Origin: Octopus vulgaris
Taxonomy: Eukaryota
Direction of reading: 5' to 3'
Assembly (NCBI GenBank): GCA_951406725.2
Contig: OX597815.1
Location: 204,910,001 to 204,974,000, forward strand
DNA: 64,000 nucleotides
The notes beneath the pieces were generated by a model. The model was not told the DNA's origin, did no database searches, and was given only the letters and a program-made list of their open reading frames with translations. The stretch's first letter is position 1; each line of letters starts with the position of its first letter. The position numbers were made by a program, and so were the translations under genes. This document shows positions 10,932 to 50,024 of the stretch, in pieces.

Positions 10932-10996
<65 letters not shown>

Positions 10997-12890
10997 TCCA
11001 GGATGTGGTTTCAATGAATTCGCCTTTGTATATCAACTTTTGTTTATGCTTCGTAAATTTTCCTTTAAGATAAAGAGGTTCATTGGTTGGGTTTTTGTCC
11101 TTGATTCTTATCGTTAGATTATATTTAAGGAGTGTACTTTGTGCATGAATATCATTCAGTTTTATCTGTAGTGGTACAAATTGCGTCGAGTTCTCTGATA
11201 AGTAATTTCAACTAAGTCGATCTTTCTGTGGAAGAACTCCTCACAAATATATAGTTAATTGAAGTTACTTATCTCAGAAACTCGGCACAAATTTTACCAC
11301 TACAGATAATGTTGTGAATGATATTCATGCAACAAGGTACACTACTTAAATATAATCTGAAGATAAGAACCAAGGTCACAAACTCTGACAATGAACCACC
11401 CTTATCTCAGAGGAAAATTTACGAGGCAGAAACAAACGTTGACCTGCAAAGGAGAAATCCATTGAAATCACAACTCTGGAATAAACTTCTGAATCAACGC
11501 AAACATGCATATTGGAAAAACATTCGTTGTAACAACATAGCCAACACCTACCGTAATTTGCGAAACAAAGAAAACCCAATCCCCATCAGAAAATTCCTCA
11601 TTAGAGAAATGAAAGGTGAAAAGCTAGAAGAAACAACGATACACACAAACTTGGTATTATGCCGTCAGGAAGCAGAACTATTTCTTTTTCAATCACGAAA
11701 ACTATGATATAAAGAAAAATTCAAAACAATTGATGTAGTCATGATTGCTGAAATCTCGGAACAAATTGATAATTAAAGTAAAAAAAAAAAACAAATTACA
11801 GCAATTATGGAAAGAAGACACCGAACGGGAAGAGGAATAATTCACAAAAGATGTGGGGGAAAGCAACAGGAGTGATTCATTAATTACGAAAAAGCCATTA
11901 TGAGAACAGAACTACAACAACAACAAAAATACAGAAAAATCAAAAACAAGCATGGACACTGACACAAGAAGAACCAGACAAAGGTATCCAACTTCTAGTT
12001 GTCCAAAAACAGATACGGAGATGGTCTCCAGATCATCTCAAATGCAAATTAGAAACTCGTACTCTACCATAAACAATCCTACAAAATATAGAAGACAGCC
12101 AGCAACTCATGATACCAAATACCCTAGAGGAATGAATACATGGGGAGAAAGGCAAGAAAAATACGGACAACACAGAAATCGTAATACAAATAAACATCAT
12201 GGAAGCTTTAGAAATCCACAATTTACGTCTAACAATTCCAAATATTCCAAATGATTTAACAAGCATAGAAGATGAGAAGACAGACCCTATATGTGATGAC
12301 ACATAAACAAACATAACCCATTCCCTCGCCTAAGAAGAAACATGAACTTCAGAAACATAAAATGATGATACAATACTACAACTCCTTTTTTAGGGAGAAC
12401 ATACTACAACTGGGCCCCGGACACGAAGAAACAAATAATTTTAATAAAGCCACGGAATATATAGACCTTAAAATTATAAATGTAGCAAAGAGAAACTTCA
12501 ACAAAACTGAAATGAGTCTTTTATTGTAAGGTTTCAAATTTACCCATACACCCACCTCTAGTCTCTAGAGCTAAAAGCAGACATTAAACATTTTAGTCGC
12601 CACCTCCGCCTCTTCAGCAGTAAGAATATAAAGGATGAGCCAATTGTCAGAAACAAATCCTGCTTCGCTCCTTACAGAGGGAGTGACAAACATTTAGATA
12701 CATATAGAGACGCAATTTCCAAATTCCTTCTCAGTATCCGTAAATGCAAACAGAACCTTCGTAAAGAAGAAAAGCAAGTTGTACTAACACTCAAGAACGA
12801 CAATTCAATCATCCTAAGAGAAGCCGATGAGGGTGGGGCGATAATGATTATGGGGAGAGGCTATTATAAGCACAAAACAGTGTAACATCT
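10997..12890 (+). mobile_element. Degenerate Penelope-like element (5'/N-terminal part) with an inverted 5' segment
   Basis: Remnants 'NLRKEEKQVVLTLKNDNSIILREADEGGAIMIM' (~12750-12850) and 'TEMSLLL*GFKFT' match N-terminal motifs of Penelope-type RT. 10997-11480 is an imperfect palindrome abutting (TA)n. Confidence 0.75.
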
Positions 12891-22796: not shown

Positions 22797-23600
22797 CTGT
22801 TGAGATATAATGTAAGAAAACAAAAAGGGCAATCAAATACATTCAAATTTTGGCACAAGGCCAGCAATTTCAGGGGTGGGGATAAGTCGATTACATCGGC
22901 CCCATTACTCAGCTGGTACTTATTTTATCGATCCCAAAATGGTGAAAGGCAGAGTAGACCTCGGCAGAATTTATGTTAAGCAACTATGTTTGTATGTATG
23001 GATGTGCATCTTTATATGTGTGGACACGTGTCTCCATATGTATACTTGTGTGGAGTAAAGTGTGTGTGTATATATGGTCATGTGTTTCAGTCTCCATTTG
23101 CGTATGTGTGCTTGTCTGTTCATATAATCTATGTACCTATCCGTTTGTATGTTGATCTGTTTATTTTCATATCCATATGCTTACATACATGTGCATACAC
23201 ACACTCACGCCCCCACACACACACATACATACATCTATCTATATAACAGACCACTAACTATTCTACTCTATCTAAGTAAACTGTGGGTATGGAGGTATGA
23301 TATCTACTATGTATATTTTCTATTTAAGATTGGGGAAGTTTCATTTATGAAATGAAACTTCCCCAATACTAAAGTTTCATATATATATATAATGATAAAT
23401 CTCAGAGCGAGTTATAAACAGTAGCGGCAACACATCGTGACGTATATTTGCCATTTGAATATGGCTAACCCCTAAGGGTGGATGGTACTGTAGTTTGTAG
23501 CCCCAGGAAGACACCTTCTCCAGCTGGCTATAGACACACTTTCTGTGCCCTATCAGTATTTGTGAAGGGAAGTCATCCTTCCCGTCTTCAACTTATGATA

Positions 23601-23645
23601 CACACGGACTCGAGTTTCAAGGTATTGACCTATCATCGGCGTGTG
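23601..23645 (-). ncRNA. Hammerhead ribozyme motif (type I, variant core), left arm
   Basis: Exact reverse complement of the 23702-23746 motif. Confidence 0.75.
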
Positions 23646-23701
23646 ACAATCATAGTTGTCGACGAGAAGTCAGTTCCCCTCACGTCGACAACTATGATTG
23701 T

Positions 23702-23746
23702 CACACGCCGATGATAGGTCAATACCTTGAAACTCGAGTCCGTGTG
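23702..23746 (+). ncRNA. Hammerhead ribozyme motif (type I, variant core), right arm
   Basis: Stem I CACACG/CGTGTG; core CCGATGA; stem II AGGT-CAAT-ACCT; GAAA; palindromic stem III A-CTCGAG-T; GUC site at 23738-23740. Confidence 0.75.
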
Positions 23747-23906
23747 TATCATAAGTTGAAGACGGGAAGGATGACTTCCCTTCACAAATACTGATAGGGC
23801 ACAGAAAGTGTGTCTATAGCCAGCTGGAGGAGATGTCTTCCTGGGGCTACAAACTACAGTACCATCCACCCTTAGGGGTTAGCCATATTCAAATGGCAAA
23901 TATACG

Positions 23907-23961
<55 letters not shown>

Positions 23962-40291: not shown

Positions 40292-40364
40292 GGGCTTGTG
40301 GCGCAATGGATAACGCGTCTGACTACGGATCAGAAGATTCCAGGTTCGAATCCTTGCAAGCTGG
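40292..40364 (+). tRNA. tRNA-Arg(ACG), possibly a pseudogene
   Basis: GGGCTTGTGGCGCAATGGATAACGCGTCTGACTACGGATCAGAAGATTCCAGGTTCGAATCCTTGCAAGCTGG matches metazoan tRNA-Arg-ACG through the D arm, anticodon arm and T loop. G1:G72 mismatch and one T-stem mismatch. TTTT at 40371-40374. Confidence 0.85.
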
Positions 40365-44445: not shown

Positions 44446-45038
44446 GGATCTTCTCCTTTTGAACGGCAGACAATTTCTAGTTAACTAAACACTTTAAAAC
44501 TTTGTATACTGGTAGAATGTGTCAAAATAAAACATTTTTTTCACTTGGCTTTCTTGAGAAAATTGTAATTTGTTTGTTTAACGTAGTTTAATTTTTCGAA
44601 TTTTAACCAATCCTATGCTCTCTTTTGAGCTAAACTCATTTGCTGCGTCTAAAACTGAGACAACATCCTGTAACTAACCCTAACCCTAACCCTAACCCTA
44701 AATTTTTTTTTCTTAATTGTTAAATTAATTTAATTGTTACGCGTGTAAAAAAACTAAAGCAATGGAATTAAATTAATTTAACAATTAAGAAAAAAAAATT
44801 GGGGGTTAGGAGGGAGGTTTAGAGTTAGTTACAGGATGTTGTCTCAGTTTTAGACGCAGCAAATGATTTTAGTTGAATGGAGGTAATCGATTGGTTAAAA
44901 TTGCCGAAATGCTCGGATTTTCAGACGAAATATCTTACAAACTATAGAATTTTCTCAATAAAACCAAGAGAAAAATGTTGTTTTATAAACACATTCTACC
45001 AGTTGTGTTGACATCTGCCGTTCAAAAGGAAAAGATCC
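44446..45038. mobile_element. MITE with long imperfect TIRs and an 8-bp TSD (Merlin-like)
   Basis: Termini GGATCTTCTCCTTTTGAACGGCAGA / TCTGCCGTTCAAAAGGAAAAGATCC. TSD CCCTACCC at 44438-44445 and 45039-45046. Internal (TAACCC)4. One-ended relative at ~15607-15800. Confidence 0.85.
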
Positions 45039-46900: not shown

Positions 46901-48420
46901 TATATATATATATATATATATTCAGAACATGTTCTACCCATATTTGTGTATATAGAGAAATATAAATATTTCTAAAACTCGTTGTTAGTTGAAAATATAA
47001 GCTGTAAATACAATATAATAAAATTAAAGTGTTAGGTCTCAGGTGTTCTTGGCTGGCGAGACACAATACGTCGAGACACCTGTGTCTCAGAATCTCGTGC
47101 GCTAATGAGCTGACTGTCGTCGTAAAAGGAAGAAGTTATTCCCTTATGACGTACACGGCAGTGATCAGCATATTTTGCGTTCGATCCTTCCTCGAACTAT
47201 TAAGAATAAATAAAAACTTTCGAAATCAAAATATATTCCAGTATAATGATTTTTTCCCTCGCCTCTCATCTTGGAACAAACTGCCATTGTTGTTGCTGAC
47301 GTCAAGTCAGCCTTTGCTGGTTAAAAATATTATTAAAGACATTCCAGTCTTGATCACCCCTTCTTTTCCGATGTCTAGGATTACATAAGGGACCTCAGTC
47401 GGTTTCGGCTGACATATATGTGCAAACTTGGGAATGAATTTTATTTTATTTTATTTATTTATCTAGAAAGATTGTGCCCACACATGCAAATCTCCCCTCT
47501 CCTACGATGTCGAAAGGTCACTGACTTAATTTGATAGATTGGTACCTTTGCCACCGAAGCTGTCAGAACGTAAGGAGACAAAACAGCTACCACCTGTCCC
47601 TTGTCTGACCTTCTAAGACTTACGTTAATCAATAACTCAGAAGAAATAAAATACAAACTTGACTTAAGCGAGATTTGAACTCAGAGGGCAAAGAATCAAA
47701 GCTAAAATCGTGATGCATTCGCCGCTTGGCCTCTTTGCCCGCATTATTCAAAATGAAATCCCCTTCCTTCTTTTTTTCTTTTTCCCCATCATGTATTCTT
47801 GCAAGGCTTTCAAGTAGTTTGGTGGTCAAGTGTAATGGTCTGAATTCCTATGAACTGGAAAGATAACAAATTAGGTTTTGTTGAACATGGGACTTTCAAA
47901 GACTCTTTAGCTTGTACCGAGGATGGGTCCCTGTAGTATGATTTCTTTGGAAATCATTGTTAGATTTTAGAATTATAATAGTTCTGTCCAGTTTCCTAGT
48001 ATTTGCCACTGTCCATACGAACAGCGAGTGAAATTACCCTTTATTCTCTAAAAGATGATGTATTTTAAACATATGATTTCATTTACTTTAGAGGCTTTTG
48101 AGCATTTGGATTTTTTTACTGCTGTTCTGGCATTTGAGCGAAAGAAAAAGGTTAATATTAGACTGCTTCATCAACGTGGTATTCTGGCGGAATCATTACT
48201 GCGCTGGGCAAAATGCTTAACAGCATTTCGCTCGTCTTTACGTTCTGAATTCAAATTCCATGGAGGTTGATTTTTGCCTTTCAGGGTCAATAAAACAAGT
48301 ACCAGTTGAGCACTGGAGTCGATGTAATCGACTTAACATCTCACCCGAAATTGTTGGCCTTTTACTAAAATTTAAAACCGATATTATGTTTTATTTTTTA
48401 TAATTATTATTTTTTTGTAT

Positions 48421-48908
48421 TTGCCAGTTTAGCCAATGAAAACACACGCACTATATATTTGGTGTTCACTTGCTTCAGCTTTATTTTATATTAATTGTAT
48501 TTGGCCAGAGTTCTTTTGTCACACTTCTGTGACCTCACCAGTGGTCCTTTGCTTTCTTCTTTCATTTTTGTGTATCTCCTTACTGAAGATCTGCCATTTT
48601 GTATTCACGTTGTTTGTGACTTTATTTGCGCATGCGTATGTCCCTGTGTGTGTCTATGCTTAGTAAGTGTGCGCAAATAAAGAAACGCAGGGATATACGC
48701 ATACGCAAATAAAGACACAACAGAAATACAAAATGGCAGATCATTAGTAAGGAGAGACAAAAAAGAAAGAAGAAAGCAAAGGACCACTGATGAGGTCACA
48801 GAAATGTAACGAAAGAACTCTGGCCGAAATATAATTAATATGAACTAAAGTTGAAGTAAGTGAACACCAAATGTATAGTGCGTGTGTTTTCACTGGCTAA
48901 ACTGGCAA
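48421..48908. repeat. Imperfect palindrome with ~230-bp arms
   Basis: TTGCCAGTTTAGCCA.TGAAAACACACGCACTATA... is mirrored by ...TATAGTGCGTGTGTTTTCA.TGGCTAAACTGGCAA; the arms can be followed inward to ~48650. Confidence 0.92.
48781..48825 (+). ncRNA. Hammerhead ribozyme motif with canonical core
   Basis: (GGA)CCA-CTGATGA-G-GTCACA-GAAA-TGTAAC-GAAA-GAAC-TC-TGG(CC). The mirror copy at 48503-48547 (-) has CTGGTGA and AAAA core changes. Confidence 0.75.
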
Positions 48909-50024
48909 CATCACCATCCCCAAATACAACAATATCTGCTTCAACACACGAATACAGATCAAGAATCTTGCAAAACGAATATATAAACATAACAAAGAAA
49001 TTTACTAGCTGACGGAGCATAGATATGTTACTTGTTTTCTTGTGGCATACGATTAATTTATTGCTCTAATCGTTGATTCTTTATTGCAAGCACCCTGACC
49101 TTTTAAGGGCTCCGGAGTCCTCAAAAGTCCTCCAGGTCTATCAAGAAGGACATGCGTATTCTCTCCCCCTCTCTGATTTAACAATTTGGAAAACTGTATC
49201 TATGAATCGGATGCATTGTTTCATGTATATATGACCTCCACAGCCTATCCTGTTTCATTTGGCTGTTAATAGGAATTTTATGGATTCTATGTTACACATT
49301 CGCTATGTTGCAGTATATTCTACGATGTTTTTGTTCCATTTGATGTAGAATTGCAAAGCTAAGGTAAGACCACAACTGTTATTGCTTTGCTATTGTTTAA
49401 TTACATTCAAGTAGTTAAGGACAGACTAAACAGACCTATTGTCATAAATATTCCAACCAAAGCAATCTCAGCTTTCCTTTGACCATAATACATCTTGAAC
49501 TATAGTTGTTCAACGTGTCTTCCTTTTTAAGACAGTATGGTGTTATTTTTCATTAAAAAAATTCACTGCTATTTTTAACAAGCTAAGCTACCACGGAGAG
49601 GCGTCATCGTAGAACAACTTTCGCCTTCGATTTTACTCCTGTTTGGTATCTGACCACACGTTGTTTTCTTTTTCTGTGTAGGCTTCATATCATTCAGCAA
49701 ATGTTTCACTTTGACCAATTATCTTCATGCATTTTTTCACATTATTTTTACAATTGGACAGTTGAATGTCGTTTGATATTTTAATTCTCCAGAGTTTGGT
49801 TTTAGAGATTTTTAATTTGGTAGTTCTAAAAAGCTGAATAACCACGTATAGCCTTCATCATTGGTTCAGTCCCTTAGCTGATGATGAGGGTAGCATCGGT
49901 GTTGTTGCTGGTGCTTAGCCCTAGTAAAGCTCTGTTAGGGCAGTCCAATGATCAGAGAGATTTCAGTTGGGGCAATATAGTCTTTCTTAGTGTATCTAGG
50001 ACTGTGGAGGAGCAATGGCCCAGT

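Follow-up and report, generated by a model that had tools for sequence, protein, structure and literature searches.

The locus studied here raises the question of what kind of element leaves an imperfect inverted repeat with a hammerhead-like motif in each arm. It lies in a 64,000-nt stretch of the Octopus vulgaris genome (contig OX597815.1, positions 204,910,001 to 204,974,000, forward strand), which we call the window; positions are those of the window unless another locus is named. The original prediction described a fold-back at 48421-48908 (488 bp) with two ribozymes reading outward, one intact and one mutated, and placed it in a general class of ~480-bp ribozyme fold-backs produced by PLE-type insertion. 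We conclude, with good confidence, that a decayed insertion accounts for the locus, in which two 5'-truncated ends of a Penelope-like element (PLE) that encodes a C-terminal GIY-YIG nuclease stand head to head; AT-rich DNA was likely cut on both strands, with one cDNA primed from each DNA end.

The arms are much as first described, with 209 of 231 aligned bases complementary between 48421-48657 and 48677-48908 (90.5%) and with both ribozymes reading outward, that is, with the arms head to head. The extent has to be revised, since the unit occupies 48409-48991 and is asymmetric, one arm carrying a 56-nt tail (Table 1). Genome matches of the right arm pass beyond the inverted repeat to 48987-48991 or end near 48935, and the right arm is therefore the tailed form of the family end and the left arm the tail-less form. 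The terminal 12-mer of the left arm agrees with the tail-less family end at 10 of 12 positions, a level reached at 1.7e-4 of window positions; its boundary at 48409 depends on a putative 15-nt deletion near the arm's outer end, between two CAA words. The right arm starts with a partial duplication of 32-nt period (48672-48686/48704-48718) that is missing from the left arm; in its strict pattern this is found in 0 of 100 references, and a diverged one is visible by eye in L026/L095. No target-site duplication (TSD) was found, the 30-nt flanks sharing at most a 4-nt word. Beyond the inverted repeat, 48910-48987 matches residues 1-26 of the intact protein of a sister family described below (tblastn, 77% identity, E 1.6e-7).

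Table 1. Features of the insertion and its left flank (window coordinates).
Feature	Position	Strand	Remarks
Whole insertion, head-to-head pair of 5'-truncated PLE ends	48409..48991	.	583 bp
Left arm, tail-less	48409..48671	-	5' end ~128-130 nt upstream of ribozyme core, in family coordinates
Right arm with tail	48670..48991	+	5' end ~125 nt upstream of ribozyme core
Arm junction	48670..48671	.	2-nt overlap (microhomology)
Minimal type I hammerhead motif	48781..48825	+	Core letters canonical; predicted cut after 48820
Mirror minimal hammerhead	48503..48547	-	Core changes A6 to G (48538) and G12 to A (48517); stem II fully paired
PLE reading frame, first 27 codons	48910..48991	+	Runs through tail; start codon decayed to ATC
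56-nt tail, right arm only	48936..48991	+	Family 3' ends bimodal at window equivalents 48935/48991
Left flank: terminal part of a different short repeat (very abundant) with its AT-rich run	48277..48408	+	AT-rich run is the likely target site of the insertion

The locus is an ordinary one, a single decayed copy among thousands, and is itself likely without function. Its right junction (48959-49150) also occurs, with 0 substitutions, in DNA contigs of two organism labels (A and F) that hold 30 and 33 tail bases, so that the insertion may predate the split of those organisms. Raw reads of organism C (90-99% alike) cover only the repeat parts, none falling at 48591-48714, and are not informative for 48409-48991; they have the family letters at 48804 and 48808, and show no pile-up of starts or ends.

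In the right motif, with core positions numbered after the hammerhead convention, stem I (48781-48786/48821-48825) is followed by CTGATGA (48787-48793), an unpaired G (48794), stem II (48795-48800/48805-48810), GAAA (48811-48814) and a triplet ending at 48820, with a 2-bp stem III closed by a 2-nt loop. The description of this ribozyme as intact is correct for its letters, as it has the conserved core and an NUH triplet, but not for its predicted fold. At 48804 and 48808 it departs from the majority letters of the family, and the change at 48808 creates a C-A mismatch in stem II (48797/48808); stem III is minimal. Stem II pair probabilities are 0-0.32, compared with 0.92-1.0 for the left mirror and copy L072; over stems I and II they are 0-0.33, compared with 0.92-1.0 for the family form, and the folding z-score is 0.0. 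The GAAC of the right motif is not self-complementary, so that the stem III loop is not a palindromic one, and a dimer would have two A-A mismatches. The left mirror (48547-48503) reads CTGGTGA and AAAA, as had been reported. Since each motif carries two substitutions, the pairing of one "intact" and one mutated ribozyme fits plain decay.

The motif itself is not a chance occurrence, because its family-type 29-nt form has 273 exact matches in the genome and its reversed control has 0. Rfam gave no hammerhead match (E<=10 for 48740-48870, E<=1 for the whole window), and returned only weak microRNA-hairpin matches under gathering scores. Among 39 copies, which were chosen by similarity and mix subfamilies, substitutions amount to 17/466 in the core and 369/5982 at other sites, and a loose core pattern is intact in 26 of 47 copies. 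Either strand of the fold-back contains only one motif sense. The whole-unit transcript folds at about -339 kcal/mol with the hammerhead paired to its mirror. In a read-through transcript, the one sense ribozyme would be concealed within a double-stranded hairpin of ~240 bp.

A search of the 2.8-Gb genome with the right arm and its flank gave 2008 first-look candidates, of which 40 were scored. To describe the family of this locus (hereafter the old family), we used 60 of the first 100 copies listed among the 273 exact motif matches, with 5 kb on each side; these are the earliest on contigs C1-C4, copies already in use being omitted. The sample of the young sister family has 60 loci with 25 abutting units, and includes in its denominators two loci (L197 and L198) that gave no arm at our filters. 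The samples are thus not random, having been chosen by similarity or exact ribozyme motif on contigs C1-C4 in listing order, and L136 and L137 look like one duplicated locus. Mates within 5 kb are head to head for 23 of the 60 old copies and tail to tail for 5 (P 9e-4). In the young family, the first 100 of 3050 matches have 22 head-to-head and 0 tail-to-tail opposite-strand neighbours within the same distance. Ten of the 39 best-scoring old copies, taken in windows of unequal length, have an upstream inverted mate, with spans of 646-1851 bp.

The asymmetry of the tails is equally regular. A tail is present on one arm and absent from the other in 20 of 23 old units, in 23 of 25 young units (the other two being unscorable) and in all 14 hand-picked long units with both ends in view; units with two tails are absent from those scored. 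Most young arms (67/86) end in (TA)n.

Longer copies of the old family continue upstream into a Cys linker and into GIY-YIG and RT-thumb sequence, with RT motifs present, and a protein search leads from here to the young sister family, which is 80% identical to the old one in this region and has frames of up to ~1310 aa. Its locus L110 contains a 1309-aa frame in a 4588-nt monomer, with partial tandems and (TA)n flanks, and a database protein labelled Octopus vulgaris is 99% identical. The modelled sister protein (pLDDT 93) has telomerases as its top fold matches (telomerase RT: Z 14.8, rmsd 3.9, 279 aligned), and residues 603-700 superpose on I-TevI (Z 10.3, rmsd 2.0, 88 aligned). The nuclease has a CCHH motif, with C611, H654, H659 and R634 invariant in 115 sequences and the second Cys visible in the sequence. 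Sequence profiles are less telling: Pfam matches to RVT_1 (E 0.0013) and GIY-YIG (E 0.0026, under cut-off) are weak, the whole 1309-aa protein matches 0 Pfam families at E 0.05, and PDB sequence searches give weak matches. A short cysteine linker (CX4CX2C, residues 1183-1191) precedes the nuclease directly, and the RT3-RT4 segment measures 131 aa, which is also its median length in 115 of 120 homologues.

Several features of the sister family are those of PLEs with a pLTR from partial tandems, namely direct repeats with seamless monomer joints, a hammerhead motif in aligned copies and an optional tail. An inverted, 5'-truncated copy stands at the 5' end, as in C-terminal EN+ PLEs, and the parent is such an element. 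We do not file it as Nematis, despite its Nematis-like linker, because the RT3-RT4 segment is about twice the canonical spacing. The lineage, represented by L110:2772-6698 (G000:C17, near 6.33 Mb) and P0002-P0120, exceeds canonical PLEs by ~70 aa between RT3 and RT4, which makes this segment telomerase-long, and it has many homologues. Such RT insertions are reported in PMC8557442 for N-terminal-nuclease PLEs and sporadically for Coprina. A long Asn/Ser-rich stretch (about residues 250-500) also keeps the L110 frame open.

The hammerhead of the young family (L110:7219-7263) has A9 changed to C and C17 to U in nearly all aligned copies, and this form has 3050 exact genome matches. Both changes would be expected to impair hammerhead cleavage. 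Related RNA reads under another organism label have the canonical letters at positions 9 and 17. Upstream partial units of the young family extend beyond the ribozyme cut site. The pattern agrees with in vitro experiments in which ribozyme mutants still insert (PMC11167929).

The proposal of a PLE-type insertion is thus upheld, by the continuity of the arms with an RT/GIY-YIG frame and by the head-to-head, one-tailed units. In the mechanism that we favor, the element's protein would cut AT-rich DNA on both strands, and each DNA end would prime one cDNA. The 56-nt tail would reflect a cDNA that likely began at the outer start site, its partner having begun at the inner one; both would stop early and would likely be joined through the 2-nt overlap. 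The hammerhead would be copied passively into both arms, by virtue of its place in the repeat before the start codon. A PLE protein cuts and extends both strands in vitro from two start sites bounding the tail (PMC11167929), and in combination with the unit geometry this makes two cDNAs from one source, with short-overlap joining, the simplest reading. In those experiments no difference between strands was seen in the start site, so the paper itself gives no strict one-tail rule. Many copies are without a mate, and the two-cDNA model gives no detailed account of them.

The arms of young units are closely related to one another. They share a haplotype in 16 of 17 loci, and their divergence is 0.13% within a unit (21 comparisons) versus 0.60% between loci (890 comparisons). 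From this we infer a single RNA source for two-sided priming, although gene conversion, or a single active source locus, may also lead to shared haplotypes. Overlaps of 1-11 nt at 19 of 25 young junctions are consistent with end joining. At the old locus, arm-to-arm identity is 90.2%, compared with a median of 89.2% between random copies, so that it bears no sign of a common template. In L124:1515-8408, one arm has a 33-nt block of another subfamily's haplotype, which represents a template switch or gene conversion.

The closest alternative retains the PLE origin and derives the second arm from self-priming (fold-back) of one strand; an instance, put forward in PMC3846280, would use an antisense template. 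This alternative would account for the shared haplotypes, and also for the nearly symmetric, palindromic junctions of 3 of the 25 young units and of L119 and L110. However, the tail-less arm extends further 5' in 15 of the 25 young units, and at 48409-48991 each arm holds sequence absent from the other. Neither arm of such a unit contains the other, which rules out simple DNA fold-back for these units and spares the version with antisense RNA. On balance we consider self-priming unlikely.

We give very little credence to the notion that the fold-back is a mobile, size-constrained ribozyme element spreading as a unit, which is what a ~480-bp class would amount to. Sizes near this value do recur, with 6 of 25 young units falling in a 450-520-bp mode and 4 of 23 old units measuring 475-487 bp. 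The class nonetheless dissolves on wider inspection: spans vary tenfold, from 275 to 3638 bp (275-2614 bp for the 23 old units, 282-3638 bp for the 25 young), junctions vary from unit to unit, 37 of the 60 old copies lack a head-to-head mate in the 5 kb on either side, and each arm is the truncated end of an element that codes for protein. A transcript would also carry a ribozyme of only one sense, and this paired with its mirror. The mode itself is accounted for by a shared stop zone of 5' ends upstream of the core (-77 to -59), where 15 of 83 young arms end, versus 1.9 expected from the neighbouring rate. None of the 83 arms ends within 10 nt of the ribozyme cut site, in a sample that favors ribozyme-bearing arms. 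These ends were mapped precisely on the young family; for the old family they were mapped on long sense references, and some may be alignment breaks. The stop zone probably marks a transcript start. The arms of 48409-48991 reach ~125 nt upstream and so lie outside the size mode, and they likely derive from a longer, read-through RNA. In L190-L249 there is a second cluster of 5 arms (of 83) that are very short and tailed, their 5' ends falling immediately ahead of the start codon, at 107-116 nt downstream of the core.

Equally improbable, in our estimation, are two independent insertions of adjacent PLEs or a later inverted duplication at the DNA level. Arms that resemble each other just as random copies do, and a 32-nt-period duplication confined to the right arm, are what such histories would leave, but they do not predict abutting 5' ends with a 2-nt overlap, asymmetric tails or a family-wide bias in orientation, and DNA duplication would not supply the left-arm 5' sequence that is missing from the right arm. 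A MITE, derived from a DNA transposon and bounded by terminal inverted repeats, would also have long inverted arms. The original prediction had set its own reading against this one, and we dismiss it: there is no TSD, the ends are unequal, the size is not uniform, most copies are single-armed and so lack one of the two inverted ends, and the sequence is continuous with the RT/GIY-YIG frame. A non-LTR retrozyme was likewise rejected for this unit, as none of the 60 old copies is preceded by a direct copy within 5 kb and the sequence is continuous with the coding frame.

Returning to insertion by two cDNAs, a broader synthesis can be offered tentatively, with somewhat less than even confidence. 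The units may document how PLEs integrate in vivo: a single RNA would be primed twice, with each end of the cut DNA and each of two fixed start sites used once, which would leave every two-armed unit with exactly one tail. Short units would stop at the RNA start, ~65 nt upstream of the hammerhead, and not at the cut site. The expanding sister family would have passed 3000 copies while its hammerhead core was non-canonical (A9 to C, C17 to U), which would make ribozyme cleavage dispensable. The parent would belong to a lineage, apparently unnamed, that combines a Nematis-like nuclease with RT fingers enlarged by a telomerase-sized insertion.

The locus had been likened to another fold-back, at 23.4 kb in the window (about 23391-23910), in geometry, total size and arm length. 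The two families are unrelated, as was stated, with one 23-nt local match and otherwise no similarity. The one-tailed, head-to-head geometry is common to both, but the sizes differ (583 bp versus ~520 bp with tails). The 23.4-kb element belongs to a young, separate, non-coding family of 352-nt period, which has no PLE frame beside 17 of 18 loci. Its core is CCGATGA (23 of 23 motif matches) with a palindromic stem III, and its two 3' ends lie ~45 nt apart, giving a one-sided tail of that length; the copy in the window has one tailed arm. It shares its mechanism with the 48.4-kb unit, and not a size rule.

Other features of the window are of several kinds. An older fold-back at 10994-11483 (79%), flanked on the left by (TA)n and with a right arm that seems to extend further, is possibly another PLE-type unit; a descriptor search found no hammerhead in it. 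The fold-back at 44508-45003 (76%) has internal telomere-like hexamer repeats and looks like a different, DNA-type element. On the minus strand, a hammerhead-like motif with a CCGACGA core and 4-bp stems lies in the region of 57914, and a tRNA-like match over the Rfam gathering score (47.3 bits) occupies 40292-40364 on the plus strand, either as a gene or as the head of a SINE.

What interest these results have comes from the rules that hold across the family and from the unplaced lineage. The locus is of little importance in itself, and the mechanistic value is modest. The near-identical copies of the young sister yield rules that can be counted (one tail per unit, a shared haplotype, a 5' stop zone and no ends at the ribozyme cut), and that are directly testable in vitro in a system such as that of PMC11167929. 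They also warn that hairpins of this kind should not be taken for MITEs, microRNA genes or a new class of ribozyme. In openly accessible literature we found no paper that describes the old or young family, attributes head-to-head PLE units to two-sided priming, or reports an RT insertion of this kind in a C-terminal-nuclease PLE. The head-to-head arrangement has been published in PMC4209133, PMC8557442 and PMC3846280, and the latter two state the origin of inverted PLE units as open.

Inverted truncated copies, a one-sided tail and a head-to-head bias are known for PLE insertion units from PMC8557442 and PMC3846280. The EN-bearing PLE units described there (PMC8557442, legend of Figure 2; PMC3846280) have in common with ours head-to-head arms, 5' truncation, a one-sided tail over the first codons, partial tandems and (TA)n targets. 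They differ in that the tail is 30-40 bp, versus 56 nt here, and our unit has no visible TSD and is non-coding end in both arms. N-rich inserts occur in the Penelope elements of Adineta vaga, according to PMC3846280, and an Asn-rich stretch likewise lengthens the sister frame to ~1300 aa. The minimal hammerheads of metazoan PLEs have low activity, and dual motifs lie ~100-700 bp apart on opposite strands (PMC4209133). Ours are similarly type I, with a long stem II, a short stem I, an unpaired base between 9 and 10.1, a G10.1-C11.1 pair and a tiny stem III, but here the stem III loop (AA in GAAC) is not palindromic, stem II has 6 bp, and the young sister has A9 to C and C17 to U.

Among C-terminal EN+ PLEs, the parent resembles Nematis (and Neptune) in the supplementary alignments of PMC8557442 (Figures S1 and S2), having a CCHH motif and, before the nuclease, a short CX4CX2C linker of the CX2-5CxxC kind found in Nematis; by eye, its nuclease end is like the Nematis rows. 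It departs from them in its 131-aa RT3-RT4 segment, where ~61-63 aa are counted by eye in the Penelope and Nematis rows of Figure S1, and in having DKS for DKG. PAc, a Poseidon element of Anolis (PMC11167929), belongs to another clade, and head-to-head units are absent from the main text of that paper; it shares AT-rich targets, a template that is uncut at the ribozyme, and a tail that lies within the beginning of the frame and is delimited by two 3' ends. Finally, the metazoan non-LTR retrozymes (10.64898/2026.07.22.740005) share the type I hammerhead and the link to PLEs. They fit the 23.4-kb family, with its 352-nt period and lack of a frame, whereas the arms at 48.4 kb are the ends of a coding element and not tandem non-coding monomers.
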